NCBI GenBank assembly: GCA_024644345.1 | Contig: JAHELE010000003.1 | Coordinates: 1,288-65,287, forward strand | Length of the DNA: 64,000 bases | Source of the DNA: Actinomycetes bacterium | GTDB lineage: Bacteria > Actinomycetota > Actinomycetes > JAHEKZ01 | Direction: 5' to 3' | Shown here: positions 10,046 through 35,904 of the stretch, piece after piece | Numbering within the stretch: the stretch's first letter is position 1 | How the letters are laid out: the number at the start of each line of letters is the position of its first letter | The notes under the pieces: generated by a model | Told to the model about the DNA's origin: nothing | Databases searched by the model: none | The model's input: only the letters and a program-made list of their open reading frames with translations | Position numbers and translations under genes: made by a program

Positions 10046-10048
10046 CGC

Positions 10049-12040
<1,992 letters not shown>

Positions 12041-12728: not shown

Positions 12729-12756
12729 GTCCTTGGCGTCCACAGCGCTCTTCCTC

Positions 12757-14804: not shown

Positions 14805-14826
14805 CGGACCACCGTACGTGTCGTCC

Positions 14827-16197: not shown

Positions 16198-16294
16198 GAC
16201 CCCCTCGCGGTGGCTGGCTTGGCGTACGGGACACTGGACGACACGCGAAAGCGACCCTAAGCCACCGCCCGAGCCACCTTACGAAGGGACCGTC

Positions 16295-16774
16295 GTGGAG
16301 TTCGACGTCTTCATCGAGATCCCGCAAGGACACCGCAACAAGTACGAGCTCGACAAGGAGTCCGGCCGGATCCGCCTGGACCGGATGCTCTTCACCTCGA
16401 CGCGGTACCCGTCCGACTACGGATTTATCGAGAACACGCTCGGCCTCGATGGTGACCCGCTCGACGCCCTTGTCCTGCTTGACGAGCCGACCTTCCCCGG
16501 CTGCGTGATCCTCTGCCGCGCCATCGGGATGTTCCGGATGACCGATGAAGCCGGGGGCGACGACAAGGTGATCTGCGTCCCGGCGCACGACCCGCGCAAG
16601 GAGCACCTCCGCGATATCCATCACATGCCCGAGTTCGACCGACTCGAGATCCAGCACTTCTTTGAGGTCTACAAAGACCTCGAACCTGGCAAGTCGGTGG
16701 AGGGCGCCACCTGGGAGGGTCGCGACGCGACCGAGCGAGAGATCCAGGCGTCCTTCAAGCGCTACGTCCCGTAG
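16295..16774 (+). CDS. ppa: Inorganic pyrophosphatase (family I)
   Basis: '[18 protein letters not shown]', '[21 protein letters not shown]'. A GTG start is preceded by a GAAGGGA RBS. The 401-aa ORF 15569..16774 is an over-extension. Confidence 0.9.
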
Positions 16775-16907
16775 GTCGCCGCAACGGACATGCCTTCGTC
16801 CACAGCGGATGTGGATGAAGCTGGGGATGCGCTGGGGACACACGCGGCAGGTGGTGTGGACGGCTCTGTGGATGAGAAAACCCGTTCAGATTCTTTGGGA
16901 AAACCCC

Positions 16908-16938
16908 TTGCGCAGCTTGGTCGGGTGAGCGTACAAAT
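16908..16938 (+). promoter_or_regulatory. Putative sigma-A-like promoter (TTGCGC-N18-TACAAA) in AT-richer stretch downstream of ppa
   Basis: The only AT-rich island in a 370-bp gap. The hexamers resemble TTGACA/TATAAT with 18-19 bp spacing. Would drive the transcript described in the findings. Confidence 0.35.
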
Positions 16939-17138
16939 CTCACACGACGCCGCGAGGCGCACCCGATCCAAAGGGCAACTAGCGGATCAGTTCGACGGGG
17001 CAACCTGCCGAACACGTTGGCGGGCAACCGCTGGCCGAGCCAGATCGTTGGGGCAACCCAGACGAGCTGCTCAGGGGTGCGGATTGGCGACATCGGGCTC
17101 GGCCTCGGTCGGGTCGTCGGCCCTCGGGCTGACAGCAG

Positions 17139-17171
17139 AAGGCCCCTCCAATGCCTAGTTGGAGGGGCCTT
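17139..17171. terminator. Perfect 13-bp stem / 7-nt loop hairpin (AAGGCCCCTCCAA-tgcctag-TTGGAGGGGCCTT), bidirectional intrinsic terminator between convergent genes
   Basis: Exact inverted repeat read directly, followed by the T-rich 'tctgtgtctgtgtcc' on the + side. Confidence 0.65.
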
Positions 17172-17269
17172 TCTGTGTCTGTGTCCATTGTGGGCAGGGC
17201 AGCGCTGAAACCGGTGGAACGACACGGTCGGCATCGCCCAGGACATGCCGACCAGGCGCCGCGGAAGCG

Positions 17270-18637
17270 CTAGCCCGCCCGGCGCATCAGGTCGTCGATC
17301 GACCGACCGAGGATGGCGAACTTCTCCGTGTAGCAGACTCCAGAGTTGAAGCACGGCTTTCCGTCCGAGTCTGCCTGCGAAGCGTCGCTGTACCGGTATC
17401 CGAGGTTCGTGAATGCCGCCACGATGTACTGGCGCCCGTCCTGCCCGGACAGCGCCTTCACAATCCCCGCATCGGACCCGTAGTTCTCGGTGAGCCCGGT
17501 CTTGTGCAGGAACGTGACCTCTGCTGTGTCGTTGCACGGCCGGACATCGAAGCCATAGGGGATTCCGTGCACGGTGACCGTGCCGTCGGTTGGGTCGATC
17601 CAGCGGTTGGGCACCTTGGCCGGCATCCCTTGGACGGGATAGTCGGCGCCGCACCAGTTGGGGGTGGAGAGCACCTCGTTGAACCCCTGTTGACTCAGCA
17701 AGCCCCGCAGCCACTCCTGGTATCGAGGTGCAAGAGCGCGATCAGCTATTACCTTGCGGCCCTCATCGGTCTTCCAGGCAACGCCATCGAGGCCGTTGAC
17801 CAGGAGCAGCAGGCGGGCCGTGTCGATTGCCGTCATGCTGATTTGCCCCGGGTTCCAGGTGCCACCGGCTCCAGCGTCGGTGCCCTTCACCTGCAGGGTC
17901 GCAAGCCCAAGCGATGCGAAGCGCTGGTTCATCTTCTTCATCTGGTTGAGACTATGGAGCTGCTGCAGCAGCGCACATGTCGACGTGTTGCTGGAGTACG
18001 TGATCATCTTCTCGAGCATCTGCGTCGTGGTGTTGGTGAACTCCTTGGTGTTTCCAAGGCAGGTCTTACCGTTTCGCTGCTTGTAGACGTAGTCGCGGTT
18101 GGGCTTGATCTTCCCCCGCTCGATCAACCGCAGCGTGTGGTAGGCGACGAGCAACTTAAAGGTGGACGCCGGGTAGGGAACCATGAACGGGTCTCCGCCC
18201 GCAGTACCTGGCACAAGGCGCGAACCCTTGGGCCAGGGGGCATTCCAGTCACCGTCCCAACGCGAGAGGTCCCACGCCCGCCAGTCGACTCCAACCGGTG
18301 CCAGGCCCTCGTCAAGGGTGACCACCTTGCCATCGGGGTAGTCGCGGCTGAACAGCACATTGGCGGTAGCGACCGGAGCACCCACCTCGTCCAGCTCGAT
18401 GACGGCCACGTCCAGGTTGGGCTGGTTCGCCACCTGAGGCGCCGGACCCTTCTTGGTGTCGTACTCGAAGTCGACGACCTCGTCGAACGCAGCATCCTGC
18501 ACCGCCGTGAGCAGACGCGCTGCCAACTCGTCGTCAGGAGAGACGTAGGCCGAGACATTAGTCGGGGCCAGCGTGGCCGCCACTATGGCCAGCGTTCCGG
18601 CCCCAGCCGCAGCTCGGAGGATGGACAAACGACGCAT
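17270..18637 (-). CDS. Class A beta-lactamase-like serine hydrolase (secreted) with ~150-aa N-terminal extension
   Basis: Signal peptide MRRLSILRAAAGAGTLAIVAATLAP, SxxK 'ASTFKLL', SxN 'YSSNTS', KTG 'LHKTGLTE'. Lower GC than flanking DNA. Confidence 0.7.
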   Translation of the reverse strand: MRRLSILRAAAGAGTLAIVAATLAPTNVSAYVSPDDELAARLLTAVQDAAFDEVVDFEYDTKKGPAPQVANQPNLDVAVIELDEVGAPVATANVLFSRDYPDGKVVTLDEGLAPVGVDWRAWDLSRWDGDWNAPWPKGSRLVPGTAGGDPFMVPYPASTFKLLVAYHTLRLIERGKIKPNRDYVYKQRNGKTCLGNTKEFTNTTTQMLEKMITYSSNTSTCALLQQLHSLNQMKKMNQRFASLGLATLQVKGTDAGAGGTWNPGQISMTAIDTARLLLLVNGLDGVAWKTDEGRKVIADRALAPRYQEWLRGLLSQQGFNEVLSTPNWCGADYPVQGMPAKVPNRWIDPTDGTVTVHGIPYGFDVRPCNDTAEVTFLHKTGLTENYGSDAGIVKALSGQDGRQYIVAAFTNLGYRYSDASQADSDGKPCFNSGVCYTEKFAILGRSIDDLMRRAG

Positions 18638-18685
18638 GGAAGCTCCTTGCCAGGTCAGGTTGTGCCGGTCACTGTAGGCGATCAC

Positions 18686-19111
18686 TCAGTCACGTACGAG
18701 GAAGGCGCACGACTCTACGAACTCCTCGATCTCCAGCCGCCACTCGTAGCGGCCAGGGGGCAGCGGCATCGAGCCGAAGCTGACAACGAGGGGGGCATCG
18801 AGCGGAGTGCCCTCCGGAAGTCCGGCCGGCCTCCCCACCTCCAGCTGACCCGACACCTCCACCGGCAACTCGTCAGACGTCGTCACGGCTCGCCCATCGG
18901 CGTCGACCAGCGCCAACCGCCAGTCGTGCCCCACATTCGTGCGGTCCCACGGCACCTCGATCTTGATCGCGACAGCCATCGGAGCCGTTGGCGTACCTGT
19001 AGTCGACCAGCCGCCGCCGAGGACATAGAGCTTTCCGCCCACCTGCTGGGCGGCGTCGGCCAGCATCATCGTGATCTTCACAGTGGCCATTCTGCCCCGA
19101 AGAGAGGTCAC
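18686..19111 (-). CDS. Hypothetical protein (141 aa), co-operonic between HMT-family gene and beta-lactamase-like gene
   Basis: ORF with GC3-rich codon usage and no recognisable motif. Confidence 0.4.
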   Translation of the reverse strand: MTSLRGRMATVKITMMLADAAQQVGGKLYVLGGGWSTTGTPTAPMAVAIKIEVPWDRTNVGHDWRLALVDADGRAVTTSDELPVEVSGQLEVGRPAGLPEGTPLDAPLVVSFGSMPLPPGRYEWRLEIEEFVESCAFLVRD

Positions 19112-19126
19112 TGTGTCGGTCGAACG

Positions 19127-20083
19127 TCAGGCAACTATCACGGCTTCGGCGACAGCCCGCACGTGGCGGACGTCTGTTCCACAGCATCCGCCGAGGATCG
19201 TGATGGTCGGCGCCACACGATGGACCTGCCACATCAGGTGGCCGAACTCCTCAATGTCACCGGGATCGAGGGGGTGGCCCTCCTCGGGCTCGACCAGGCC
19301 AGCGGGCGAAGCGTTGGCGCGTAGTCCTCTGATCCGTCGTCGCCATGGCGCGTCATCCCGCAGCATTCGAAGGATGTGGTGCGGGTGGGTGCAGTTGAGC
19401 ATGTAGTAGGCGGGCGCCACTACTGCCTCGCTGTCGGTGCGTTCGATCGCGTCGGCCACTGTCGTGCCGTCCGGCAGCCGTCCCTCGACGTCCGTGGTGA
19501 ACGAGATCACCGAAGGAACGTGTGCCCCGGCAGCCGCGTCGGCGATACCGATAGCCTCGGCGACGTAGTCGATCGTGAGCGCGGACACGATGTCGACTCC
19601 ACTGGCGGACAGGACGCCGACCTGCCAGGCGTGGTACTCGGCGGCCTCAGCCGCTGACATGACGGTGGCAATGTCATACCCGTCGGCGCGCGGCCCGACA
19701 TTTCCACTGATGACGAACGGAAAGCCCGCGCTCTGCTCGCGCAGCCCACGGAGAAGGTCGACGGCGTCGCGATTCAGCTCGGCGAGCCGTTCCAGGTCGT
19801 ACCCCAGTCGAGCACCCCAGTCGGGGCTGGCCCGCCAGGTGGGGGTCTCGAACACCACACCCATGCCACGCTCATTGGCCACGTCGAGGTGAGCCCGGAA
19901 ATAGTCCAGCAGCGTGGACCGCCCGTCGACCGACTCGAGCAGGGGAAACGGAGCGAAGTCCGGCAGGTCGAGCCCGTGGTTGTAGATCAGGTCGGTCTCG
20001 ATTCCGCTGTCGGTGAGAAACACCTCGTCGCGCATCTGGGGAAGACCCTTCGACGCCATGACGCCACCTCCGTCGCTCGACAT
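19127..20083 (-). CDS. Homocysteine S-methyltransferase family protein (MmuM/BHMT-like, zinc-dependent)
   Basis: C-terminal zinc motif 'ILGGCCGTDVRHV', central 'YYMLNCTHP', TIM-barrel HMT fold. Confidence 0.8.
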   Translation of the reverse strand: MSSDGGGVMASKGLPQMRDEVFLTDSGIETDLIYNHGLDLPDFAPFPLLESVDGRSTLLDYFRAHLDVANERGMGVVFETPTWRASPDWGARLGYDLERLAELNRDAVDLLRGLREQSAGFPFVISGNVGPRADGYDIATVMSAAEAAEYHAWQVGVLSASGVDIVSALTIDYVAEAIGIADAAAGAHVPSVISFTTDVEGRLPDGTTVADAIERTDSEAVVAPAYYMLNCTHPHHILRMLRDDAPWRRRIRGLRANASPAGLVEPEEGHPLDPGDIEEFGHLMWQVHRVAPTITILGGCCGTDVRHVRAVAEAVIVA

Positions 20084-20150
20084 GGGAGTGCTCGATACTG
20101 GAAACGTACCGAGACGGCGTCAACCGGCAACCAATGACGAGGAGGTGCCA

Positions 20151-20753
20151 GTGAAGCTGCTTGCCACCGCACTGGTCACTGTGCTCGCAGTCGGCGCCTG
20201 CGCGGCTCCCCAGACCGCGCAAGACCGCCCACCACAGCGCGTCAAGAAATCGGCGACGGTCAAGCCCTCGCCTACGTCATCGAAGCCCACGAGCAGTGAC
20301 ATCCGGCAGCTCGCCAAAGGGCCGGTCAGCACCGGTTGGCGCGTCAGCCGCATAGTGGACGGCGACACGGTCGACGTCACCCAGGGCAAACGCACCCTCA
20401 CGCTTCGGCTGATCGGCATCGACACTCCTGAGACCGTCCATCCCACCGAACCCATCGAGTGTTACGGCCCCGAAGCCACCGAGTTCGCTCGCAGGCGGCT
20501 TCTCGGAGAACCAGCCGCGCTTGAGTTCGACCGCTCGCAGGGTCGCCTCGACTACTACGGCCGGACGCTGGCATACCTGTGGACCACCGACGGCGCCCCC
20601 CGGCAGTTCAACCGTCAGGCCGTCCGCCGCGGCTACGCCCTCGAGTACACCTACGACGACCCGTACCTGTGGCAAGGCGAGTTCAAGCGGGCCGAGGCAC
20701 TGGCGAAGTCCGCCCGCCTGGGCGTGTGGCGGTGTCCCCGACCGGGAAGCTGA
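20151..20753 (+). CDS. Thermonuclease-like (SNase) lipoprotein
   Basis: GTG start after a GGAGG RBS, lipobox 'LAVGAC', 'VDGDTVDV..LRLIGIDTPE' staphylococcal-nuclease motifs. The 246-aa ORF from 20013 is an over-extension. Confidence 0.8.
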   Translation: MKLLATALVTVLAVGACAAPQTAQDRPPQRVKKSATVKPSPTSSKPTSSDIRQLAKGPVSTGWRVSRIVDGDTVDVTQGKRTLTLRLIGIDTPETVHPTEPIECYGPEATEFARRRLLGEPAALEFDRSQGRLDYYGRTLAYLWTTDGAPRQFNRQAVRRGYALEYTYDDPYLWQGEFKRAEALAKSARLGVWRCPRPGS

Positions 20754-20754
20754 G

Positions 20755-22173
20755 CTAGTCCCAACTGAAGCCTGGAGGAGTGGGTGAGCAGAGCTCGACA
20801 GTTCGGTCGTGCATGGCCTGCTCCTTGTCCGCGTAGGCGGGACGGCCAGCAAGGTTGTTCAGCTCCAACGGATCGTGGACGTAGTCATAGAGCTCGACAC
20901 CGGCGTCACCCGACCAGTGCACATAGAGCCAGTTCTTCAGGCGTAGCCCGCAGTAGGCCGGCTGACCTGGGATGGCAATCGCCTCAAGAACCACATCGTT
21001 GCGGAACGGTCCGAGGACGGAGGTGCCTTCGATAGGCCATGTCGGCGTCACGTTGGCGGCATCGAGAATCGTGGCCCCGACGTCGGCGTTGGCCACCAGA
21101 CGGTCACGGTCGGCAACCGGGAACCGCTTGCCCCACTTCAGGATGAGCGGGAACTCGGTCGCCCACCGGTAGGGGTTGTACTTCTCGTCGAGACGGTGCT
21201 CCCCCCACATCACCCCTTGATCGGATGTGTAGATGAAGAGGGTGTTCGGCCGACGGTCACCGATCGCCTTCAGCACGCGTGCCACCGCCTCGTCGACAGC
21301 GCGCAAGGACTCACCGCTCTTGTCCTGAGCCCGCTTGATCCAGTCTCGGTCAACCCGTGGAAGATCCTGCATGAAGGCCGGCTTGTCGCTCATGTCCTTC
21401 TCGTTCACCGCCGGGTTGTCGTAGACCTTCTCGGGTTGCCACGTCCCCTTGTGTCGCGGCGCGGGCGTCCACGGCTCATGCGCGGCAAATGGCGTGAAGT
21501 AGAGGAAGAAGGGTTGGTCGTCCGGCGAGCTCTTGATGAAGCGCACCGCTCGATCAGCGAGCACGTCAGTGGAATAGGCCTTGGGCTTGCTGCCGAACTT
21601 CTCCGTCTCGTGCGTTCCTCGAATCTGATAGTCGTAGTAGCGGCCACCGCCCTGCCCGACATCAGACCAGAGAGCCCGGAAGACGTCCCACCCATCCGGC
21701 ACAAAGCCGTCTGGTGCCTGGTTCCACAGGTTCATGTACTTGCCGACCAGGCCGGTGCGGTACCCCGCTTCGTCCAGCGCGACGGCAATTGTCTTCTGCT
21801 CGTAGCCCGAGCCGTTGAATGCTGGCCAACCACCGTACGTCGGGTTGACGTTGTTGTAGACACCCGTGGTGTGGGCGAACTGCGCGGTCAGGAGGGACGA
21901 ACGAGCCGGACAACATGCGGACGTGGGACTGAACCCGACGTACTTCAGGCCCTTCTGGATGAGCTTCTTGCGCACCGTCGGCATCGTCTGGAACATGTTG
22001 CGACGCTGGTCGTCGGACATGATCACGACGATATTCGGTGGATCAGCAGCTTTGACGCCGGCAGCGGCCGGTGCCGGTAAGGTCGCAGATCCGCTCGGCG
22101 TGGCGACCCCCAGCCCTGATGCCAACACGGCGATGGCGCCGAGGGGAGCCAGGAATCCGGTCAATCTCCGCAT
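20755..22173 (-). CDS. Sulfatase (formylglycine-dependent, secreted)
   Basis: 'SPTSACCPARSSLLT' C-x-P-x-R motif and signal peptide MRRLTGFLAPLGAIAVLASG. ORF track starts at 22425, but the upstream 84 aa are Ser/Thr-rich junk. Confidence 0.8.
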   Translation of the reverse strand: MRRLTGFLAPLGAIAVLASGLGVATPSGSATLPAPAAAGVKAADPPNIVVIMSDDQRRNMFQTMPTVRKKLIQKGLKYVGFSPTSACCPARSSLLTAQFAHTTGVYNNVNPTYGGWPAFNGSGYEQKTIAVALDEAGYRTGLVGKYMNLWNQAPDGFVPDGWDVFRALWSDVGQGGGRYYDYQIRGTHETEKFGSKPKAYSTDVLADRAVRFIKSSPDDQPFFLYFTPFAAHEPWTPAPRHKGTWQPEKVYDNPAVNEKDMSDKPAFMQDLPRVDRDWIKRAQDKSGESLRAVDEAVARVLKAIGDRRPNTLFIYTSDQGVMWGEHRLDEKYNPYRWATEFPLILKWGKRFPVADRDRLVANADVGATILDAANVTPTWPIEGTSVLGPFRNDVVLEAIAIPGQPAYCGLRLKNWLYVHWSGDAGVELYDYVHDPLELNNLAGRPAYADKEQAMHDRTVELCSPTPPGFSWD

Positions 22174-22267
22174 CACGAGCCTCCCACTCCGAACACAGCC
22201 TCTATTCACGGTCGCTGCCCTGACCGCTCCTGCCAAGTGCGGAAGGTCCTGCGGTAGGAATGGGCCC

Positions 22268-23242
22268 GTGATCGATGCCCACAACCACCTCGGTCGATGG
22301 CTGTCTGCAGACGACGACTGGCTGGTCGACGACGTCGGCGAATTCATCGGAATGCTGGACCACGTTGGCGTCGACATGGTCGTGAACCTGGACGGACGCT
22401 GGGGTGCGGAGCTCGAAGCCAACATCGCTCGCTACGACGCGCGGCACCCTGGCCGCTTCCTGACCTTCTGTCACGTCGACTGGTCGGTTCTCAGCTCCGA
22501 CGACGACGAGCGTTCGATTGTCGACACCCTGTCGAGCCAGCTCGCGGCGTCAGCCGCTGCAGGAGCTCGCGGCGTGAAGGTGTGGAAAGACCTCGGCCTG
22601 CAGGTCCGCGGCGCGTCGGGTGAGTTGGTGATGCCCGACGACCCACGCGTCGCAGCCGTCCTCCAGGTGGCGGGCGAGCTCAATCTGCCGGTGCTCATTC
22701 ACACTGCTGACCCCGTTGCGTTCTTTGAACCGCTGACTCGGGCCAACGAGCGTTGGGACGAGTTGCAGGTGCACCCCGAGTGGTGGTTCGGGGGCTCGGG
22801 CATGCCGTCGTTCGGGTACCTCATGGACCGTCTCGACGGACTGCTGACCCGCTGCCCAGGCACGACCTTCATCGGTGCGCACGTCGGCTGCTGGGCCGAG
22901 GATCTCGACGCCGTCGGGCGGATGCTCGGCCGGCACGCCAACTGGACCATCGACATCGCGGGGCGTCTTGGCGAGCTGGGACGCACACCCGGGGACTTTC
23001 GCTCGCTGGTGGAGGACTTTCCCGACCGCGTCCTGTTCGGCACCGACTGTTTTCCACCGACGGCCGACGACTACGCCAGGCACCGGCACTTCATTGAGAC
23101 AACGGACACCGGCTTCGACTACTCGGGGGACCCCACCCCGCCCCAGGGGAACTGGACGATCGACGGCGCCGGCCTCGATGCCCGGCTGCTGCCCGGCCTC
23201 TACGACAACAATGCCCGCAGGATTCTCCGTCTTACTGATTGA
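22268..23242 (+). CDS. Amidohydrolase-2 family metal-dependent hydrolase (TIM barrel)
   Basis: N-terminal 'VIDAHNHLGRW' metal-binding HxH. A GTG start is preceded by GGAAGG/GGTAGGAA. ORF track start 21866 is an over-extension across the divergent sulfatase promoter. Confidence 0.65.
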   Translation: MIDAHNHLGRWLSADDDWLVDDVGEFIGMLDHVGVDMVVNLDGRWGAELEANIARYDARHPGRFLTFCHVDWSVLSSDDDERSIVDTLSSQLAASAAAGARGVKVWKDLGLQVRGASGELVMPDDPRVAAVLQVAGELNLPVLIHTADPVAFFEPLTRANERWDELQVHPEWWFGGSGMPSFGYLMDRLDGLLTRCPGTTFIGAHVGCWAEDLDAVGRMLGRHANWTIDIAGRLGELGRTPGDFRSLVEDFPDRVLFGTDCFPPTADDYARHRHFIETTDTGFDYSGDPTPPQGNWTIDGAGLDARLLPGLYDNNARRILRLTD

Positions 23243-23251
23243 CTGGTCAGT
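23242..23251. promoter_or_regulatory. Operator-like inverted repeat ACTGGTCAGT followed by TAGTTTTC, 23 nt upstream of the GcvT-like ATG
   Basis: Same motif, in inverted orientation, at 29082..29091 upstream of the Rieske oxygenase gene. Confidence 0.45.
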
Positions 23252-23273
23252 TAGTTTTCGCCAGGGTGGTGAC

Positions 23274-24359
23274 ATGACAGACGCCCCGGTCCGCTCCGTT
23301 CTGTACGACGTCCAAGACCGACAGGGAGGGATGTTCGACGACTTCGGTGGGTGGATGTGGACCCTCGACTTTGGCGACATCCTCGGCGAGTACGAGACGC
23401 TCCGCTCTGGTGCCGGCATGTGGGACGTGTACGCGCTCAACAAGTGGCTGGTGACCGGTCCCGATGCTGCGTCCGCCCTGCAGCGCGGCTTCACGAACAA
23501 TCTCGCCACCCAACAGGTGGGCCAGGTGCGCTACGGAGCATTCGTCGATGAGAACGGAATCCTTCTCGACGAGGGAACGGTCTATCGTCGCGCCGACGGC
23601 TCCTACTACGCGTTCACGAACACCGACACATTCGACGGCTTTGTTCGTGGTCACTCGCCAGATGCCGACGTATCCCTCGTCAACAAGCTGCACGACATGC
23701 CCCTTGTCTCTGTGCAGGGTCCACGTTCACGCGAGATCCTGCAGTCGCTCAGCGACTTCGACTTCTCGACGCTTGCGTACTTCCGGTTCGCTGAACCGGT
23801 CACCGTCGCGGGCATTGAGGTGTTCATCTCCAGGACGGGTTTCTCCGGTGAACTCGGCTACGAGCTCATCCCCGCGCGCGACGATGCTGAGCCTTTGTGG
23901 CTTGCCCTGGCCGATGCCGGCGTCCGGCCCGTTGGGTTCAACGCCATCGACATCGCGCGGATCGAGGCCGGGTTGATCGTCTTTGAGTACGAGTACGAAC
24001 CTGGTCTACTGACGCCGTTCGACCTCGGAATGGACCGCATGGTCAGCTTCGCCCCCGACATCGACTATGTGGGCAAGATCGCTCTGCAGAGGATTGCCGA
24101 GAACCCACCGCACCGCCTGAAGACACTTCGCCTGGAAGCTGGAGAGCTTCCGGAGGCGGGCTCGGAGGTCACCAAGGACGGGGCCAAGGTCGGAACGCTG
24201 ACCAGCCCAACGAACAGCCCCCGTTTCGGGCCCATCGCCTTGGCGATCCTCGACACGGCCGTCGCCGACAATGACGCCGTGCTGCAGGTGGTCGGTTCGA
24301 CGGTCACCGTGGCCGACCTCTCGATATTCGACCCGACGAAGGCTAAGCCGCGCGCCTGA
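23274..24359 (+). CDS. Aminomethyltransferase (GcvT/DmdA/DgcA folate-binding family)
   Basis: 361 aa; 'FSGELGYEL', 'YEPGLLTPFDLG', GcvT fold throughout. Confidence 0.8.
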   Translation: MTDAPVRSVLYDVQDRQGGMFDDFGGWMWTLDFGDILGEYETLRSGAGMWDVYALNKWLVTGPDAASALQRGFTNNLATQQVGQVRYGAFVDENGILLDEGTVYRRADGSYYAFTNTDTFDGFVRGHSPDADVSLVNKLHDMPLVSVQGPRSREILQSLSDFDFSTLAYFRFAEPVTVAGIEVFISRTGFSGELGYELIPARDDAEPLWLALADAGVRPVGFNAIDIARIEAGLIVFEYEYEPGLLTPFDLGMDRMVSFAPDIDYVGKIALQRIAENPPHRLKTLRLEAGELPEAGSEVTKDGAKVGTLTSPTNSPRFGPIALAILDTAVADNDAVLQVVGSTVTVADLSIFDPTKAKPRA

Positions 24360-24939
24360 CCGCACGACGTTGTCGGACCGTCATCCAGACCCCGGCGAGT
24401 GCGGCCCCTGATGTTCCGAGGAACTCGTCGAACAGAGTGTCTTCGTAGGCGGTGTCGAGCTCAGTGCCGTGCCGGATGAACGCGTACCACTCGCCGAGCT
24501 CCCACCCGATCGCCAGGATGGCTCCGATGCCCACCGTCAACCAGCCGAGGGCCCACGGCGGCAGAGTCGATGCCTGGGACAGGATGAGACCGGCGCCGGC
24601 GGCCAGCAGGAACCAGTTCACGAAATGGTTCGCGTCGTCCCACCAGGACACCGTGTCGTAGAGGTTCAGGGTGTTACCCGTGACGTCGATGAGGAACGGC
24701 GTCCAGATGAACGCGAATGCCCGCCACGGTGTCTCGGGGACGGGCTTTTGCCGACGGCCCCACGCCCAGTAGGCCACGGGGACGATGAGCATCATCAGCG
24801 GGTAGGCCAGCAACCGTGCGCCGAAGGCCTTGCCCTCGAACTGGTCGAGTCCCGGCACGAACGTCGCAACTCCCAGCTGCAGAACCGTGAGCCCGAAGAT
24901 CACCAAAGCAATCACGCGGCTCAGCCCGGCTCTCGTCAC
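24343..24939 (-). CDS. Hypothetical polytopic membrane protein
   Basis: 5-6 TM helices and no catalytic motif. Convergent with the GcvT-like gene, with a 17-nt overlap. Confidence 0.45.
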   Translation of the reverse strand: MTRAGLSRVIALVIFGLTVLQLGVATFVPGLDQFEGKAFGARLLAYPLMMLIVPVAYWAWGRRQKPVPETPWRAFAFIWTPFLIDVTGNTLNLYDTVSWWDDANHFVNWFLLAAGAGLILSQASTLPPWALGWLTVGIGAILAIGWELGEWYAFIRHGTELDTAYEDTLFDEFLGTSGAALAGVWMTVRQRRAVRRAA

Positions 24940-25021
24940 GTGGCACAGAGTAGGGGTGGCCAGACGAAGGCTTGTGCGTCGACATGCCTAGAGATCTGGC
25001 TAGGATCCGATCGGATGAGAG

Positions 25022-26038
25022 GTGGTGCCGTCGATGAGCGACGTCTTGCAGCAGCGTGACTTTCTGAAGGAGATTGACTTCACCAGGGACGAGCTGCAGC
25101 ACCTCATCGACCTCGCCGGAGAGCTCAAGACCGCCAAGCGAACCGGCACCGAGAACAAGCACCTGACCGGCCGCTCAATCGCCCTGATCTTCGAGAAGTC
25201 GTCGACCCGTACGCGCTGTGCCTTCGAAGTCGCCGCGTACGACCAGGGAGCTCATGTCACCTACCTCGACCCCTCGTCGTCGCAAATCGGCCACAAGGAG
25301 TCAGCGGCCGATACGGCCCGGGTGCTGTCTCGCATGTTCGACGCCATCGAGTTCCGGGGTAAGGCCCAGGCCACAGTCGAAGAGCTGGCCGAGTTCTCCG
25401 ATGTCCCGGTCTACAACGGGTTGACCGATGAGTGGCACCCCACACAGATGCTGGCTGACTTTCTCACCATGGAAGAGCACGCGTCGCACGCGACCACCCG
25501 GCCGAGCTTCTGCTTCCTCGGTGACGGACGATTCAACATGGGCCGCTCACTGCTTGTCATGGGGGCAATCATGGGATCCGACGTCCGGATCTGCGCGCCT
25601 CAGACTCTTTGGCCTGATGACGAAGTGCAGGCGATCGCCCGCGAGCACGCCGACCGATCGGGTGCTTCGGTCACCCTGACCGAGGACCCCGACGAAGGTC
25701 TGCGTGGGGTTGAGTTCGTACACACGGACGTCTGGGTGTCGATGGGCGAGCCGAAGGAGGTCTGGGCATCACGCGTCAAGGAGCTGATGCCGTACCAGGT
25801 GAACGCGGTCGCCCTGGCAAAGACAGGTAACGCCAACGCGAAGTTCATGCACTGCTTACCTGCATTTCACGATGAGCGCACCGCGGTGGGACGCGAAGTA
25901 TCCGCACTGACCGGGGTCACGGGTGGCCTCGAGGTCACCGACGAGGTATTCGCCTCGCCGGCCAACATCGCCTTCGACCAGGCGGAGAACCGTCTACACA
26001 CGATCAAGGCCCTCATGGTCGCGACTCTGGGCCGCTGA
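25022..26038 (+). CDS. Ornithine carbamoyltransferase, closest to catabolic ArcB-type
   Basis: '[17 protein letters not shown]', 'HCLPAFH', and N-terminus collinear with ArcB ('[27 protein letters not shown]'). The start is probably MSDVLQQ at about 25034. Confidence 0.88.
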
Positions 26039-27454
26039 TCAGTCAGGCCGTGCCGGAACTGCCGCACTGGGCGCGCTGACGACAAAGACCCCGGCCCGCT
26101 CCGCGTGTGCGGCCCAGCCCAGGAGGTCCTCGTCGCCGTTGGGGCGTCCGATCAGCTGCACCCCCATGTGCAGCCCTTCCTCGTTGGTGCCAGCGGGCAT
26201 AGAGAGGGCAGGCAGCCCAGCGAACGTTGCGAGCGTCGTCACCTCCATCCATCGGTGGTAGGTGTCCATGGCGACTCCGTTGACCGAAGCCGGCCAGTGC
26301 AGGGATGCAGGGAAGGGCCAGCACTGGGCGGTGGGCATGGCCAAGAAATCAAAGCGCCCAAGCAGAGTCACGAGCGACTGACGCACACCGTCGCGAACGA
26401 GCTTCGCGTGCGCCAGCTGTCGGCTTGTCAGAGAGCGAAATCCGGCGACCTCCCACTGGGCCTCTGGCTTCATGCCGTCAATCGTGGATCCATCGAACTC
26501 GGCTGCAAGCGATCCGCCGACCTCGTGGTGGCGAATGGCCAGCCATGCCGGCCACAGCTGAGAAGCGCCGGTGAAGGCGCCCCGGGTCGGCAGATCGGCG
26601 CTGTCCACGCGACCGCACCACGCCTTCAGGGTGCTCGCACAGGTGTCGAGGATCCCGCCCTCGAAGGGCAGGTATCCACCAAGATCTCCCAGCCAACCGA
26701 TTCGCGGACTGGCGTCAGGTGGTGGGAGACCCAGCACCGAGATTCCTTTCTGTCCTGCCATGGTCGCGAGTAACGCATGGAGATCGCCAACGCTGCGAGC
26801 GATCGGCCCGTCCACCCCGCTGCCATGCGCGCCGGTGGCGTCCTGCACACCTGGGACAACGCCGACTGACGGACGCAGTCCCAGCACGCCGTTCCAGCCC
26901 GGAGGGTTGCGCAGCGACCCCATGAAGTCACTGCCGTCCGCCACAGGGGTCATTCCGGTCGCTACCGAGACCGCAGCTCCGCCGCTGCTACCTCCGGCAG
27001 TCAGTGAAGGATCGACGACGTTGCCCGTCGTCGGACCGATGGCGTTGTAGGTGTGCGACCCAAGGCCGAACTCAGGAGTGTTCGTCTTGCCGATGAAGAC
27101 AACGCCAGCGGCCCGTAGATGCGCCACGAACGGGTCGTCGACGTTCGCCACCGGCGACTCAGCCACCGGGCGGAAGCCCAAGGTGGTCGGCAGTCCCTCT
27201 ACGTGCGACAGATCCTTCACCGCGTGCGGAAGCCCGTGCATCCAACCGCGCCACATCCCGTGATCCAGCTCATCATCACGTTCAGCCGCGTCCGCCAGGA
27301 CCACATCACGAGGGCGTCGACTGCTCAAGGCGTGGTACGAAACGTCCAGTAGCTCGATTCGGTCGAGATGTGCGCGCACCACCTCGACACACGAGATCTC
27401 TCGCTGTTGTATCGCTCGACTCAGCTGCAACGCAGAATGGTCGAAGGCGGGCAT
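26039..27454 (-). CDS. Amidase (amidase-signature family)
   Basis: 'GGSSGGAAVSVATG' plus the 'GKTNTPEFG' Ser-cisSer-Lys triad context. Confidence 0.85.
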   Translation of the reverse strand: MPAFDHSALQLSRAIQQREISCVEVVRAHLDRIELLDVSYHALSSRRPRDVVLADAAERDDELDHGMWRGWMHGLPHAVKDLSHVEGLPTTLGFRPVAESPVANVDDPFVAHLRAAGVVFIGKTNTPEFGLGSHTYNAIGPTTGNVVDPSLTAGGSSGGAAVSVATGMTPVADGSDFMGSLRNPPGWNGVLGLRPSVGVVPGVQDATGAHGSGVDGPIARSVGDLHALLATMAGQKGISVLGLPPPDASPRIGWLGDLGGYLPFEGGILDTCASTLKAWCGRVDSADLPTRGAFTGASQLWPAWLAIRHHEVGGSLAAEFDGSTIDGMKPEAQWEVAGFRSLTSRQLAHAKLVRDGVRQSLVTLLGRFDFLAMPTAQCWPFPASLHWPASVNGVAMDTYHRWMEVTTLATFAGLPALSMPAGTNEEGLHMGVQLIGRPNGDEDLLGWAAHAERAGVFVVSAPSAAVPARPD

Positions 27455-28938
27455 CAGCTCTCTCGTTCCACGAGCTCGTTCCGCAGCGCGGCCTTCTCCA
27501 CCTTGCCCATCACGTTGCGCGGCAGGCTCTTCATCACCACGATTTCCTTTGGCACCTGGTACCCGGCTAGCCGCGACCGTGCTGCCTCACGCAGCACCTC
27601 GGGCTCGAGCCGAATCTCGGGGTTGGCGACAACGACGGCCACGACGCGCTCTCCGAAGTCCGGATCCGGCAGTCCCACCACGGCCGACTCCACCACCCCG
27701 GGCAACGAGTCAAGGACACTCTCGACATCGGTCGGGTAGACGTTCAGACCCCCCGTGATGACAAGGTCCTTCGAGCGACCCACCAGCTCGAGGTATCCAT
27801 CATCATCGAACCGGCCCAGATCGCCGGTACGGAACCACCCGTCTGTCGTGAACGACTCGTCCGCGAGCTCCGGTCGCCGCCAGTAGCCGGAGAAGACGTT
27901 CGGACCGCGTACCTGCACATCGCCCACCTGCCCCGCCATTACAGGTCGATCAGCTTCGTCCACGGTTCGGATTGACACCCCGGGAAGCGGGGGACCGACA
28001 GTCCCAGGACGCCGTGGGCCGGCAAGGGGGTTGGAGGCCAACATCGAGGTCTCGGTCATTCCGTAGCGTTCGAGGATCTCAGCGCCTGTCCGTGCGGTGA
28101 ACTCAGCATGCGTTGCCTGCGTCATCGGTGCCGAACCAGAGACGAAGAGCCGCACCCTGGCGCAAGCGGCGGCGGTGAATCTCTCGTCAGTGAGCAACCG
28201 CGTGTAGTGCGTCGGTACCCCCATCACCACCGAGCAGGACGGCAGTGCGGCCAAGATCTCATCAATGTCGAAGGTGGGTAAGAGCACCATGGACGCACCG
28301 CTGGTCAGAACGCAGTGCGCTGCCACGAAGAGACCGTGAGTGTGAAACAGCGGAAGGATATGCAGGAGGACGTCCGAAGGAGTGAATCGCCATGCGTCGA
28401 CCAGGGTTTGAGCGTTGGCTGCCAGATTGCCGTGACTCAGGAGTGCACCCTTCGGTCGCCCTGTGGTGCCTGATGTGTAGAGCAGAGCCGCTCCATCGTC
28501 GGCCGTCACCGCTGGTAGCTCGTCAGAGCCTTCACTCATGATGTCTCGGAGCGAACCGTGGCCCATCGCGTCCATCGTGAGCAGCCGCCAGGGCCCACCT
28601 AGTGGTGAACGCCCCGGCGAGCGGATGACCAGCGACGGCTCGGCGTCGGCCAGCAGTGCGTCCACCTCCGCGTCGGCGTAGCTGGGGTTCAGCGGAAGCT
28701 GAATCGCACCACAGCGAAGCAGCGCAAGGTGCAGGACCACCGTGGCCACCGACTTGTCCACTTGGTATGCCACTCGATCACCGATGCCGATGCCAGACGC
28801 CACGATGGCCCGTGCCAGCCGCGTTGACGCCTCGTCGAGCTGTCCGTAGGTGAGGCCGGCACCCATCGGAGTGCGGATGGCCGGCGCGTGGCGGCTCGCC
28901 GTGACATCAGCCAGGAGCCCCAGCAAGGTACGACTCAC
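27454..28938 (-). CDS. AMP-dependent synthetase/ligase (acyl-CoA synthetase family)
   Basis: '[12 protein letters not shown]', 'TGDLGRFDDDGYLELVGRSKD'. A 1-nt stop/start overlap with the amidase gene implies an operon. Confidence 0.85.
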   Translation of the reverse strand: MSRTLLGLLADVTASRHAPAIRTPMGAGLTYGQLDEASTRLARAIVASGIGIGDRVAYQVDKSVATVVLHLALLRCGAIQLPLNPSYADAEVDALLADAEPSLVIRSPGRSPLGGPWRLLTMDAMGHGSLRDIMSEGSDELPAVTADDGAALLYTSGTTGRPKGALLSHGNLAANAQTLVDAWRFTPSDVLLHILPLFHTHGLFVAAHCVLTSGASMVLLPTFDIDEILAALPSCSVVMGVPTHYTRLLTDERFTAAACARVRLFVSGSAPMTQATHAEFTARTGAEILERYGMTETSMLASNPLAGPRRPGTVGPPLPGVSIRTVDEADRPVMAGQVGDVQVRGPNVFSGYWRRPELADESFTTDGWFRTGDLGRFDDDGYLELVGRSKDLVITGGLNVYPTDVESVLDSLPGVVESAVVGLPDPDFGERVVAVVVANPEIRLEPEVLREAARSRLAGYQVPKEIVVMKSLPRNVMGKVEKAALRNELVERES

Positions 28939-29081
28939 TTGCTCACCCGATATCTGCTGCCACGTGCACGCTCGATGCCCACGCTGAGCCGTGGGCTTCA
29001 GACCCTATTGGAGCGGGTCGATATGCCGTAGAGATGCTTCCCTACCCGCCTTGGCTCGGGTTATCCTTGGCTCGCTGACTG

Positions 29082-29091
29082 ACTGACCAGT
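29082..29091. promoter_or_regulatory. Operator-like inverted repeat ACTGACCAGT followed by CACTTTTC, 21 nt upstream of the Rieske oxygenase ATG
   Basis: Reverse complement of the site at 23242..23251, with the same downstream TTTTC and the same distance to the start codon. Confidence 0.45.
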
Positions 29092-29111
29092 CACTTTTCA
29101 ACGGAGGATCG

Positions 29112-30212
29112 ATGACCACCCAGGTTCGCCACACGCTGCCGGCCACCCACTACTACTCGCCTGAGCAGTACGCCGTGGAGCAGGAGTGCCTGTGGTACGA
29201 GCAGTGGGTGTTTGCGGGGCGGGCCGACCAGGTGGCCGACCCGGGCCAGTTCCTCACCGTCGACATCGCCGGCCAGGGCGTGCTGATCACCCGCAACAGC
29301 GAAGGTGCGCTTCGGGCGTTCTACAACGTGTGCAGTCACCGTGGCGCCGTGCTCTGCGACGACACCCGAGGCGAAACCAAAGCAGTGTTCCAGTGTCCGT
29401 ACCACGCGTGGTGCTATGACTTCGACGGCGTGCTCGTCGCCACCCCCCGGGTCGACAAGGACGAGGTTGACCGATCGGTCCTCGGACTCAAGCCCGTGCA
29501 CGTCGACGATTGGCAGGGTTTCCTTTTCGTCAACCTGAGCCGCGAAACGCCGACGCCACTGCGCGACTCCCTAGACGGTCACTACGACTCACCGCTGCGC
29601 TTCGAGAAGCACGAGCTCGACCGCCTCGCCACCGTTCACCGCACCGAGTCAGTCGTAGCGGCCAACTGGAAGATTCTGATCGAGAACTACAACGAGTGTC
29701 TGCACTGCCCCATCGTCCACCCCGAGCTGGTGGAGGTCGTTCCGACCTACAAGAAGGGCATGACCGGCGACCGAAGCCGAGAGGACGGCGGCGTCGCGCT
29801 AATTACTGGTGGGACGAGCTACTCCGACGACCCTCGTGCTCGCCGGGCCGTTCTTCCCGGCATGAACGACGAGATGGCCCACAGCATCTACGGCAGTCAG
29901 GTGTTCCCCAACATGTTCCTCGACATCGCCGGCAGCAATGTCGTCGCGACCAGGCTCGTTCCGGAGGGCCCCCTCCAGACCCGCGTCCTCACCGAGTACC
30001 TCTTCATGCCCGAAGACATCGCTGAGCCGGACTTCGACCACCAGCCGGTCGTCGACTTCTGCGAGCTGGTTGCCGGGCAGGACTACGCCGTATCCGAACG
30101 CGTCCAGCGCGGTATCACCTCACGCGGGTTCGCACACGGCGTCTACCCCGAGAAGGACGACTACGTCCACCAGTTCAACGAGTACTACCGCAAGGTCATG
30201 AACGAGGCCTGA
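29112..30212 (+). CDS. Rieske [2Fe-2S] non-heme iron oxygenase alpha subunit (GbcA/CntA/Stc2-like)
   Basis: Rieske motif 'CSHRGAVLC..CPYHAWCYDF' and mononuclear Fe site 'NECLHCPIVHPE'. No adjacent reductase gene. Confidence 0.85.
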   Translation: MTTQVRHTLPATHYYSPEQYAVEQECLWYEQWVFAGRADQVADPGQFLTVDIAGQGVLITRNSEGALRAFYNVCSHRGAVLCDDTRGETKAVFQCPYHAWCYDFDGVLVATPRVDKDEVDRSVLGLKPVHVDDWQGFLFVNLSRETPTPLRDSLDGHYDSPLRFEKHELDRLATVHRTESVVAANWKILIENYNECLHCPIVHPELVEVVPTYKKGMTGDRSREDGGVALITGGTSYSDDPRARRAVLPGMNDEMAHSIYGSQVFPNMFLDIAGSNVVATRLVPEGPLQTRVLTEYLFMPEDIAEPDFDHQPVVDFCELVAGQDYAVSERVQRGITSRGFAHGVYPEKDDYVHQFNEYYRKVMNEA

Positions 30213-30239
30213 CGCACCTGGCACGACCGCAACAGCAAT

Positions 30240-30818
30240 GTGATGGTGTTCACTAGTTCGATGGCGTCGTCCCGCACAGTTCACCGCAGCCTGCTGGATG
30301 CCATGGACAACGCATGGGAGCCCGTATCCGCTCGGTTGTCAGGTATGAGTGAGAGCGAGTACGCGTGGCAGCCAGTCGCCGAGTGCTGGACCGTTCGCAC
30401 CCACGGTGGCCATTGGCTCGCAGACTGGGCGGATCCGGACCCTGATCCCGCACCCGTGACGACGATTGCCTGGCGTACCTGGCATGTTGCGGTCGATTCC
30501 CTCGACAGCTACTCCGAGAGACTGTTCGGCGTACGGGGTACCGGCCTCACGGGAACGAACTGGGTGGGGACCTGGCGCGAGGCCGAGCCACTTATGGCGG
30601 CCGCGTTCGACGTCTACCGCAGAGGTGTTGCTGGGTGGACCGACAAGACGCTGCTGGCTCCTCTGGGTGCACAGTGGGGTCCGTTCGCACACCACACTCA
30701 TTTGGATCTTGCGTTGCACGCTATCCGCGAGCTGATCCACCACTTGGCCGAGATTGCGCTCCTGCGTGACCTCTATCGAGCGATGCTCGACCAGCGCGGA
30801 AGTGACTTTCTGCCCTGA
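30240..30818 (+). CDS. DinB/YfiT-like (DinB_2) superfamily protein
   Basis: His-rich 4-helix pattern ('HGGHW', 'WHVAVDS', 'HHTHLDLALHAIRELIHH'). 27 nt after the Rieske gene, so probably co-transcribed. Confidence 0.55.
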   Translation: MMVFTSSMASSRTVHRSLLDAMDNAWEPVSARLSGMSESEYAWQPVAECWTVRTHGGHWLADWADPDPDPAPVTTIAWRTWHVAVDSLDSYSERLFGVRGTGLTGTNWVGTWREAEPLMAAAFDVYRRGVAGWTDKTLLAPLGAQWGPFAHHTHLDLALHAIRELIHHLAEIALLRDLYRAMLDQRGSDFLP

Positions 30819-30926
30819 CGCTCCGACTGAGGGCCCCGATAGATTTGTTGTGGCGACCACGCCTCGGTCGCCGACGGGACTGCCAGTCGCCCCGCCTCTC
30901 GCTAGTGAGAGTGTCGGAGGGTTGAC

Positions 30927-31898
30927 ATGACATTCATGCGTACAAAAACATCCCTCTTCGCGGTTGCCGCTGTAGCGGCGCTCGCAGTCGGGGGTACATC
31001 CGCAATCGCGGCCGAGGAGGAAACCCTCGGCAACAACCTCTCGATGCCGGTCGTCTTCGCAGAAGGCTACGGAATCACCGGGATGGAAACTCAGCCCTAC
31101 ACCACGTACCCCACCCTGACAGAGGACGACGGGCTCCGGCCACGCACAGAGGCCGAAGCGCTTCCGTTCCTGGAGGACGGAACACCCGCCCCCTATCTGG
31201 ACATGGCTGACGCGTACATGCTGGACGGAACCACGTACTACACCCAGAAGGGGCCGAGCACCTGGAAGGCTTACGCGAAGGACGGCGCCACCAACAAGAA
31301 GGTCGCTTCCCTCGTGTACTTCGGTGACAACCTCACGGGCCACCAGTGGACAACGAACGTCAAGATCATCCACCTGGAGATGGGGCTGCAGAAGGAGATG
31401 ACCGATCCGCAGCTCACCTACCCGATGACGTCCCTAGAGGGCACCAAGATGAACGAGGTGTTCGGGACGACCGGCGAGCCCGCAACGGGTACGACCGCCA
31501 AGGTCTACACGCCCATGGGCAAGCTGGTTATCCAGAAGCTTGACAAGAACCACAAGCCCATCGGCAAGATCTTTAAGCAAGCCATCTACCAAAGCTTCTC
31601 GACAGATGGCAGCGGGCAGTTCGCCACTGAGGTCACTGGATCCGGCACGCTTTCCTACGGCTACAACTGGTTCCTCAGCGACACCGGCGACTTTGCCAAG
31701 GCCGGTTGGTGGAGGATCACTTTCAAGATCAAGGCAGAAGGCACGTGGAACGACGGCGTCGAAGACGTGACCGTCGACCGCAACGCCAAGATCGTGGGCA
31801 AGATCGTTAGCACTGAGACGGAAGGCGAAGCACCGCTCTTCCCGATCAAGATCGCTGACAAGTACACCGCCTACGTGGACATCCAGATCATCAAGTAG
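30927..31898 (+). CDS. Secreted protein of unknown function (Lys-rich, low GC)
   Basis: Sec signal MTFMRTKTSLFAVAAVAALAVGGTSAIAAE preceded by a GGAGGG RBS. About 53% GC versus about 70% in flanking DNA. Confidence 0.5.
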   Translation: MTFMRTKTSLFAVAAVAALAVGGTSAIAAEEETLGNNLSMPVVFAEGYGITGMETQPYTTYPTLTEDDGLRPRTEAEALPFLEDGTPAPYLDMADAYMLDGTTYYTQKGPSTWKAYAKDGATNKKVASLVYFGDNLTGHQWTTNVKIIHLEMGLQKEMTDPQLTYPMTSLEGTKMNEVFGTTGEPATGTTAKVYTPMGKLVIQKLDKNHKPIGKIFKQAIYQSFSTDGSGQFATEVTGSGTLSYGYNWFLSDTGDFAKAGWWRITFKIKAEGTWNDGVEDVTVDRNAKIVGKIVSTETEGEAPLFPIKIADKYTAYVDIQIIK

Positions 31899-35897: not shown

Positions 35898-35904
35898 ACG
35901 TCGA

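Follow-up and report, generated by a model that had tools for sequence, protein, structure and literature searches.

The 11.7-kb stretch at positions 19127-30818 of an actinomycete contig segment (JAHELE010000003.1; the whole 64-kb segment is referred to here as the window) contains 11 genes, among them those for a Rieske non-heme iron oxygenase and for a GcvT-like, tetrahydrofolate (THF)-dependent aminomethyltransferase-family protein. A preliminary description of the stretch had suggested that most of these genes could form a single route, hitherto undescribed, for a quaternary-amine or ureido/guanidino compound. Comparison with related genomes leads us to consider it probable that the stretch is instead a lineage-specific mosaic, located in a variable gap between two blocks of conserved actinobacterial core genes, in which a small regulon comprising the GcvT-like and Rieske genes is embedded. 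Judging from a conserved palindrome upstream of both, the two genes are most probably controlled by a BetI-type TetR regulator encoded elsewhere in the genome, and their predicted common control suggests that the two proteins are used jointly in the breakdown of a methylated amine.

The palindrome has a perfect 18-bp consensus with the halves ACTGACTGA and TCAGTCAGT, which as a candidate TetR operator is written in one stretch as ACTGACTGATCAGTCAGT. Within the window it occurs just upstream of exactly two genes, those encoding the GcvT-like protein and the Rieske oxygenase (Table 1), and a search of both strands for the exact 10-mer TGACTGGTCA likewise returned two occurrences, upstream of these two genes only. 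The site before the GcvT-like gene overlaps the stop codon of the preceding Amidohydro_2 gene and is kept in four related loci (L001, L002, L003, and L006), where upstream alignments show that the spacer around it diverges. At the Rieske gene, the window, L001, L002, L003, L006, and L007 all have an unchanged core, CTGACTG...CAGTCA, with the remaining intergenic DNA again diverging. Since the arms are conserved in sequence and not by compensatory changes, and since no run of T residues is conserved, a protein-binding operator fits these alignments better than an RNA hairpin does.

When a position weight matrix derived from the sites of the window clade was scanned over 2.47 Mb with a threshold of 15 bits, 38 matches were obtained, nearly all of them intergenic and located 2-75 nt upstream of five gene types. 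The palindrome precedes Rieske orthologs in 18 loci, including a Streptomyces genome (L026), and GcvT-like orthologs in 7 loci, including two (L168 and L169) in which it has no linked Rieske gene. It is also found upstream of genes for SBP_bac_8 solute-binding proteins of ABC transporters, at Rieske identities of ~50%, and upstream of class-III aminotransferase genes. The candidate regulator in these relatives combines a TetR_N domain with the BetI-type C-terminal domain PF13977, and all eight of its orthologs (L008-L011, L021, L022, L024, and L047) have the palindrome 15-75 nt upstream of their own gene, which indicates autoregulation. With a second matrix, built from sites outside the clade, the two window sites ranked first (25.9 bits at the GcvT-like gene and 21.5 bits at the Rieske gene), followed by a next-best match of 7.8 bits; the maximum among 100 shuffles was 21.4 bits. 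The association with the Rieske gene falls off with sequence distance, the palindrome being present in 5/5 loci at ≥70% Rieske identity, 13/24 at 47-69%, 1/18 at 40-46%, and 0/38 below 40%. Neither the window nor L001-L007 yielded an ortholog of the TetR gene.

As in BetI-type TetR repressors of choline and betaine genes, the predicted operator lies just upstream of both the target genes and the regulator's own gene. Unlike in BetI systems, the apparent targets are Group V Rieske, GcvT-like, and SBP_bac_8 transporter genes, not genes of the betAB type, and the operator is a product of genome comparison. Our literature search returned no description of this operator or of an actinobacterial pairing of Rieske and GcvT-like genes. 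In four loci with Rieske identities of 41-45% (L028, L033, L038, and L039), a different palindrome, (A/G)TTGAAC-N6-GTTCAA(T/G/A), occupies the corresponding place, ~40-110 nt upstream of the Rieske homolog. A related regulator of the TetR/BetI type, recognising another predicted operator, may therefore control a sister clade.

By its motifs and profile scores, the Rieske protein is a member of Group V (the CntA/Stc2/GbcA type) and is closest by score to CntA and Stc2. The ligands of its [2Fe-2S] cluster, C74-S-H76 and C95-P-Y-H98, are invariant in 38 homologs. Residues 195-203 (ECLHCPIVH; E195-C196-L-H198-C199-P-I-V-H203) match the Group V signature E-C-x-H-C-x3-H and align residue-for-residue with E205-C206-x-H208-C209-x3-H213 of CntA and with the equivalent Stc2 residues. 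The Asp ligand, D324, is present, and Q323-D324 aligns with the ED motif of CntA. A bridging Glu, followed by a Cys-x-x-Cys pair on either side of the first Fe-ligand His, is described as characteristic of the quaternary-amine oxygenases of Group V (PMC10952381). In the PDB, a profile of the 38 homologs scored 202 bits against CntA, 202 bits against 3n0q, and 199 bits against Stc2, versus 135 bits for the best aromatic enzyme; among NCBIfam models, the protein itself scored 189 bits with GbcA and 104 bits with anthranilate dioxygenase. The signature and these scores bear out the earlier assignment to the GbcA/CntA/Stc2 type, and they show no grouping with aromatic ring-hydroxylating dioxygenases, the outcome that the preliminary description had named as refuting. 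The GbcA equivalog cutoff is not reached (NF058607, 188.7 bits versus 670).

Like CntA, Stc2, GbcA, and BmoA, the window protein combines a Rieske domain with a catalytic one and has no gene for a beta subunit in its vicinity, and, as for other Group V amine oxygenases, relatives of its gene adjoin genes for amine oxidases, ABC transporters, and BetI-type TetR proteins. It differs from the characterised Group V enzymes (~390-435 residues) in its shorter length of 366 residues, and its C-terminal half diverges from Stc2. The annotated genes of the 64-kb window include neither a Rieske reductase nor a solute transporter, as the preliminary description had stated for the cluster, and a CntB/GbcB-type reductase does not recur among the neighbours of 80 Rieske homologs either. 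Near homologs of ~50% identity there are genes for an ADP-forming acyl-CoA synthetase, an acyl-CoA dehydrogenase, and an enoyl-CoA hydratase, a hint that in those relatives a carboxylated betaine is processed via coenzyme A (CoA) esters, although this is not transferable to the window genome. In the literature we retrieved, Group V Rieske oxygenases have been characterised only from Proteobacteria (PMC7948474, PMC10952381).

The GcvT-like protein has the full PF01571 plus PF08669 architecture, and its strong GCV_T domain agrees with the earlier placement in the GcvT/DmdA/DgcA family. A more specific assignment does not follow from the curated models, as the protein stays below every GcvT cutoff (NF001567, 210 versus 300 bits; TIGR00528, 160 versus 236; NF010093, 116 versus 459), below that of DmdA (NF009133, 118.5 versus 410), and below those of Tdm. 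Its nearest PDB entries are the GcvT of B. subtilis (173 bits) and the C-terminal domain of trimethylamine N-oxide demethylase (Tdm; 125 bits), and with T. maritima GcvT these make up its best matches, in keeping with a GcvT-family enzyme. Unlike the T protein of glycine cleavage, it is encoded by a stand-alone gene, under the same candidate operator as a Rieske oxygenase; the annotated window genes include no gcvH or gcvP. In Tdm, dimethylglycine oxidase, and the sarcosine oxidase SoxA, domains of this kind pass a methyl-derived one-carbon (C1) unit to THF. The window protein is 80-83% identical to its counterparts in L001, L003, and L006. Two other settings for the gene were considered and set aside. 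A LigW/LigM-type aromatic demethylation pair formed with the adjacent Amidohydro_2 protein is opposed by negligible LigM/DesA scores and by the absence of the pairing in L003 and L166-L169, and a glycine or THF riboswitch is ruled out by an Rfam scan of positions 18500-31500, which gave no match at E values up to 1.

Taken together, these features can be arranged into a working mechanism in which the repressor, the transporter, and the reductase would be encoded elsewhere in the window genome. The TetR protein would bind the palindrome, and a methylated or quaternary amine would relieve the repression. The Rieske oxygenase, supplied by an unlinked reductase, would then hydroxylate an N-methyl or N-adjacent carbon, and the GcvT-like protein would use THF, either to carry out another demethylation or to trap the released C1 unit in the form of 5,10-methylene-THF. 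The presence of a THF enzyme in the regulon weakly favours N-demethylation over a CntA-style release of trimethylamine. A more complete scheme, which we offer tentatively and regard as possible rather than likely, has an actinobacterial Group V subfamily and a stand-alone GcvT-like protein, placed through the palindrome under a BetI-like TetR regulator, directing the oxidatively removed methyl group to folate and not to free formaldehyde, with the products of the matB-amidase pair, described below, processing the remaining skeleton.

Conservation of the stretch was followed from three anchors, the Rieske, amidase, and GcvT-like proteins. For the Rieske anchor, 85 loci were collected by protein look-ups and by a scan of one genome per species over 185,579 species (80 loci), and the window proteins were compared with these loci by tblastn. 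The block was found only in L001, L002, and L003 (look-ups) and in L006 (scan), all of which are uncultured actinomycete metagenome-assembled genomes (MAGs) with Rieske identities of 73-90%. Its content varies among them: the homocysteine S-methyltransferase (HMT)-family gene is absent from L001; the sulfatase gene, present in L001 and L007, is absent from L002, L003, and L006; and the Amidohydro_2 and ornithine carbamoyltransferase (OTCase) genes are absent from L003. In L007 (positions 1239-3983; 87% Rieske identity), the sulfatase gene lies beside the Rieske gene in divergent orientation with the palindrome between them, and the segment from Amidohydro_2 to MatB is missing. Loci at or below 67% Rieske identity contain no other gene of the block; approximately nine have a GcvT-domain protein of 27-33% identity nearby.

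The other two anchors gave a similar picture. Among 80 metagenome loci collected with the amidase, a MatB ortholog was found only in L088 (67% amidase identity) and an OTCase ortholog only in L087; at 42-56% amidase identity, the sole nearby ligase is a 32%-identical acyl-CoA ligase in L149, and clustering of the neighbours of amidase homologs produced no recurrent partner. GcvT-like homologs of 53-59% identity have housekeeping neighbours, adjoining dnaX and recR (L166) or genes for DUF456, DUF7455, and a topoisomerase (L168 and L169). In L167 (positions 10001-20468), a 54%-identical GcvT-like gene is located beside a ~35%-identical, apparently frameshifted Rieske gene, two BetI-type TetR genes, and genes for a flavin amine oxidase and an SBP_bac_1/8 ABC transporter; this locus gave no match to ACTGA-N8-TCAGT. 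Co-conservation in relatives, which the preliminary description had proposed as a check, thus breaks down for most of the genes, the HMT, sulfatase, Amidohydro_2, OTCase, and DinB genes all being variable, and these comparisons lend no support to a coherent cluster beyond shared descent in a narrow clade.

One further pair of genes merits separate treatment. What had been listed as an acyl-CoA ligase was placed in the right family and is, more precisely, of the MatB type: it exceeds the NF005702 cutoff (646.6 versus 558 bits) and matches the MatB of R. palustris (PDB 4FUQ) with 499 bits. The amidase passes the NF005686 cutoff for the PRK07486 subfamily (484 versus 465 bits) and has GGSSGG at residues 154-159. 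Its start overlaps the matB stop codon (TGATG), an arrangement from which we predict a translationally coupled two-gene operon with the amidase gene second. Like the enzymes of R. palustris and S. coelicolor, the ligase is a MatB by its model score, here coupled to an amidase-signature enzyme. Unlike in the rhizobial combination of MatB with malonamidase E2 (MAE2), the amidase is not malonamidase-like and the pairing is confined to a narrow clade; MAE2 scored only 52 bits, compared with 131 bits for an unrelated amidase, and this score, along with the occurrence of amidase homologs elsewhere without MatB, rules out the rhizobial type of pair. The matB gene is transcribed divergently from the Rieske gene across a 173-bp spacer, with its start 139 nt from the palindrome. 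Between the two genes, L002 has a monoamine/putrescine-oxidase-like flavoprotein gene, and L006 has genes for a PRK07538 flavin monooxygenase and a 248-aa protein. The matB-amidase pair and the Rieske gene thus have one control region in common, and in this lineage they may be co-regulated.

The reading in which all 9-11 genes form one route for a quaternary-amine or ureido/guanidino compound draws on their adjacency, on the occurrence of several families with C1 or amide chemistry, and on the Group V character of the Rieske protein. The comparative data largely refute it, and we regard it as highly improbable: the genes alternate between strands in at least seven transcription units; at least one close relative lacks each of the genes for HMT, the sulfatase, Amidohydro_2, OTCase, and DinB; none of the three anchors revealed co-conservation beyond MAGs of at least 73% Rieske identity; the palindrome precedes two genes only; the HMT gene was ancestrally beside metY-metX; and the sulfatase and the nuclease are secreted. 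At the other extreme, the palindrome could be a coincidence, a terminator-like hairpin, or the site of a general regulator, with the genes functionally independent. Its arms are short (ACTGA/TCAGT), it was spotted by eye among ~10 junctions, the site at the GcvT-like gene extends into the end of the gene before it and is followed in the window by TTTT, and the Rieske site of the window is marginally above the shuffle maximum. We nevertheless find this explanation improbable, because the sequence itself, beyond its complementarity, is conserved in 5-6 relatives within divergent spacers, the T-run is not retained in relatives, and the palindrome recurs at Rieske orthologs in 13 further loci, at the unlinked GcvT-like genes of L168 and L169, and at every TetR ortholog, with virtually no matches elsewhere in the 2.47 Mb.

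Between these extremes lies a larger module, in which the divergent matB-amidase pair would join the GcvT-like and Rieske genes in a single pathway, specific to this lineage, that acts on an N-methylated or quaternary compound. The tight coupling of the pair speaks for such a module, as do its orientation, which is always away from the shared control region in the window, L001, L002, L003, and L006, and the palindrome, which is 80-139 nt from the first minus-strand gene. Further points in its favour are that L003 keeps the GcvT-like, DUF2238, amidase, MatB, and Rieske genes at amidase and MatB identities of 55-57%, that MatB is confidently of the malonyl-CoA synthetase type, and that the L002 operon has gained a monoamine/putrescine-oxidase-like gene. 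Against it, L007 has the Rieske gene and the palindrome beside the sulfatase gene without matB-amidase; L002 and L006 have different genes inserted ahead of matB; amidase homologs of 42-56% identity have no MatB ortholog nearby (the ligase of L149 being only 32% identical); Rieske homologs at or below 67% identity are never near a MatB or amidase ortholog; the amidase is not malonamidase-like; and an unrelated nuclease gene is equally syntenic. On balance we consider this module unlikely, and we would give similarly little credence to its detailed form, in which the skeleton ends as malonate or as a malonamide-type amide that is converted to malonyl-CoA, with an amine oxidase or flavin monooxygenase added in some relatives.

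The small GcvT-like/Rieske regulon that we favour has points against it as well. The operator is predicted from conservation. The sites treated as independent were first picked with the clade-derived matrix, so that their validation is positional and not blind, and the Rieske site of the window barely exceeds the shuffle maximum (21.5 versus 21.4 bits). The regulon is incomplete in the 64-kb window, in which the TetR ortholog, the reductase, and the transporter were not found, and no site was detected at the GcvT-like homologs of L166 and L167 or at 11 of the 24 Rieske homologs with 47-69% identity. The retention of the GcvT-like, DUF2238, amidase, MatB, and Rieske genes in L003, at an amidase identity of 55%, could reflect selection for a larger module.

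An undescribed multi-enzyme pathway, as first reported, is thus an over-reading of adjacency, and the case counsels caution, in that enzyme-rich runs between the core blocks of compact, high-GC genomes can mimic pathways. What remains, more modestly, is an actinobacterial clade of Group V Rieske proteins for which an operator, a BetI-type repressor, and a transporter (represented by the SBP_bac_8 gene only) can be named as candidates, along with an unexpected stand-alone GcvT-like partner. This combination offers a handle on the turnover of methylated amines in uncultured soil and freshwater Actinomycetota, and cultured carriers are available in Nocardioides sp. CPCC 206349 (L010) and Streptomyces sp. 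NPDC047108 (L026).

Table 1 Genes and operator-like palindromes of the 19127-30818 stretch, in window coordinates.
Feature	Position	Strand	Supporting matches and remarks
HMT-family protein, PF02574, 310 aa	19127-20059	-	PF02574 117 bits; open reading frame (ORF) extends to 20083
SNase-family nuclease lipoprotein	20151-20753	+	PF00565 73 bits
Secreted S1-family sulfatase	20755-22173	-	PF00884 + PF16347; signal peptide; CCPAR formylglycine motif
Amidohydro_2 metal hydrolase, 324 aa	22268-23242	+	PF04909 56 bits; N-terminal HxH motif
Operator-like palindrome ACTGATTGACTGGTCAGT	23234-23251		22 nt upstream of GcvT-like ATG
GcvT-like THF-dependent aminomethyltransferase-family protein, 361 aa	23274-24359	+	PF01571 200.7 bits; PF08669
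DUF2238-type membrane protein, 198 aa	24343-24939	-	Homologs annotated PF09997
OTCase, ArgI/ArcB type	25034-26038	+	TIGR00658 385.5 bits
Amidase-signature enzyme, PRK07486 subfamily	26039-27454	-	NF005686 484 bits
MatB-type malonyl-/methylmalonyl-CoA synthetase (AMP-binding)	27454-28938	-	NF005702 646.6 bits
Operator-like palindrome GCTGACTGACTGACCAGTCACT	29074-29095		16 nt upstream of Rieske ATG
Group V Rieske non-heme iron oxygenase alpha subunit, 366 aa	29112-30212	+	PF00355 + PF00848
DinB_2-fold protein	30240-30818	+	PF12867 47 bits

Pfam and NCBIfam searches recovered all nine genes named in the preliminary description and added two that it had overlooked, those for the SNase lipoprotein and the DUF2238 membrane protein. 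In order, the 11 genes lie on strands - + - + + - + - - + +, with the convergent and divergent pairs tightly packed across the stretch. Because of this alternating orientation there must be at least seven transcription units and not one operon, and co-transcription is possible for three pairs only: Amidohydro_2/GcvT-like, matB/amidase, and Rieske/DinB. To the left, the stretch is flanked by folP, folE, ftsH, hpt, a gene for a Zincin_2 protein, dacB (Peptidase_S13), and ppa, and to the right by genes for secreted proteins, a phosphoesterase, and an N6-DNA methylase, followed by tRNA-Thr, holB, tmk, and topA, so that the location between the dacB/ppa core genes and a tRNA-proximal region had been described correctly. 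The GC content of the window is ~65%, and coding frames are clear from the GC content at third codon positions (GC3). Synteny with relatives reaches beyond both ends of the block, to the DUF6941 gene in L003 and to genes for secreted proteins of 323 and 472 residues in L002. Because the block resembles its surroundings in GC and GC3 and because synteny extends past both ends, acquisition of the block as a horizontally transferred island is not supported. A scan for consensus promoters and terminators performed at chance level and was uninformative.

Apart from the regulon and the matB-amidase pair, the HMT, nuclease, sulfatase, Amidohydro_2, DUF2238, and OTCase genes are, in our reading, unrelated passengers. 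The HMT protein had been called a BHMT/MmuM-like Zn methyltransferase. Its PF02574 domain and the Zn-ligand cysteines (C223 in LNCTHP and C292-C293 in GGCCGT) agree with that family, but its scores are far below the equivalog cutoffs of MmuM (NF007020, 56 versus 215 bits) and BHMT (NF005718, 51 versus 338 bits), as well as of MetH, and PDB matches were limited to MetH at E ~1e-3. The family, of ~310 residues, is widespread, with ~50% identity across phyla. In L003, the HMT gene adjoins metY and metX, each of which exceeds its NCBIfam cutoff, and metX is also adjacent in L002, which by gene order makes proximity to metY-metX the apparent ancestral state. These neighbours, and a 55%-identical homolog that stands alone in another genomic context, exclude a tie between the HMT gene and the methylamine genes; no operator site was found upstream of it. 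At L003:1-4084 and L002:1-997, metY and/or metX lie between the DUF6941 and HMT genes. In the window (18686-20083), HMT is directly beside DUF6941, and metY-metX must therefore have been deleted or moved in this genome.

The SNase lipoprotein has a lipobox (LAVGAC), and its gene has a GAGGAGG Shine-Dalgarno sequence. Its position is kept in L001, L002, L003, and L006; as this unrelated nuclease is as syntenic as the supposed pathway genes, synteny here reflects shared descent. The sulfatase was recognised earlier as secreted, in agreement with its signal peptide and CCPAR motif, and with 74 bits against the 433-bit cutoff of the BetC model (TIGR03417) it is predicted not to be a choline sulfatase. 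The Amidohydro_2 protein has no match in the PDB or NCBIfam. In L003, a Zn-ribbon gene occupies its place and the palindrome is retained, and Amidohydro_2 is probably a passenger that happens to sit upstream of the palindrome. The DUF2238 gene, which shows a high GC3 coding signal, is convergent with the GcvT-like gene, overlaps it by 17 nt, and is kept in L001, L003, and L006.

The OTCase passes its TIGR00658 cutoff (385.5 versus 280.85 bits). Catabolic ArcB of the arginine deiminase pathway, from P. aeruginosa, is its best solved homolog (457 bits), and the anabolic E. coli ArgI is nearly as close (412 bits). Unlike in ArcB systems, there is no arcA, arcC, or arcD near the gene. The earlier designation as an ArcB-like catabolic OTCase lacking arcA and arcC therefore holds for the best match and for the missing partners; the protein scores as an ordinary OTCase, so that "ArcB-like" is fair as a statement of similarity, whereas the catalytic direction is not readable from sequence. 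The DinB gene begins 27 nt downstream of the Rieske gene and is probably co-transcribed with it, in the window genome only; L001-L007 have no homolog, and HD-domain or other genes are found at that position in relatives. The HD-domain genes that follow the Rieske gene in L002 (11111-11671) and L003 (11113-11655) encode proteins with scores of 26-40 bits, far below cutoffs, to HD-domain oxygenases of the PhnZ/TmpB type. Enzymes of this type act on aminophosphonates, one of them on a trimethylammonio-substituted phosphonate.

Several features of the window outside the stretch were also recorded. Beside tRNA-Thr, positions 34479-38458 encode a phosphoesterase-family protein, an Eco57I/N6-type DNA methyltransferase, and two ORFs without a Pfam match, and the GC content falls to ~0.60; this gene content and the local drop in GC are compatible with the "tRNA-proximal island" of the preliminary description. 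ARAGORN predicted a tRNA-Ser(cga) at 55490-55566, where an Rfam scan at gathering thresholds gave only the tRNA-Thr at 38532-38604; a 351-aa ORF overlapping 55490-55566, with no Pfam match, is probably spurious. Finally, two pyrophosphatases are encoded in the window, one a soluble inorganic enzyme (16300-16774) and the other a membrane-bound, H+-translocating enzyme (46941-49274).

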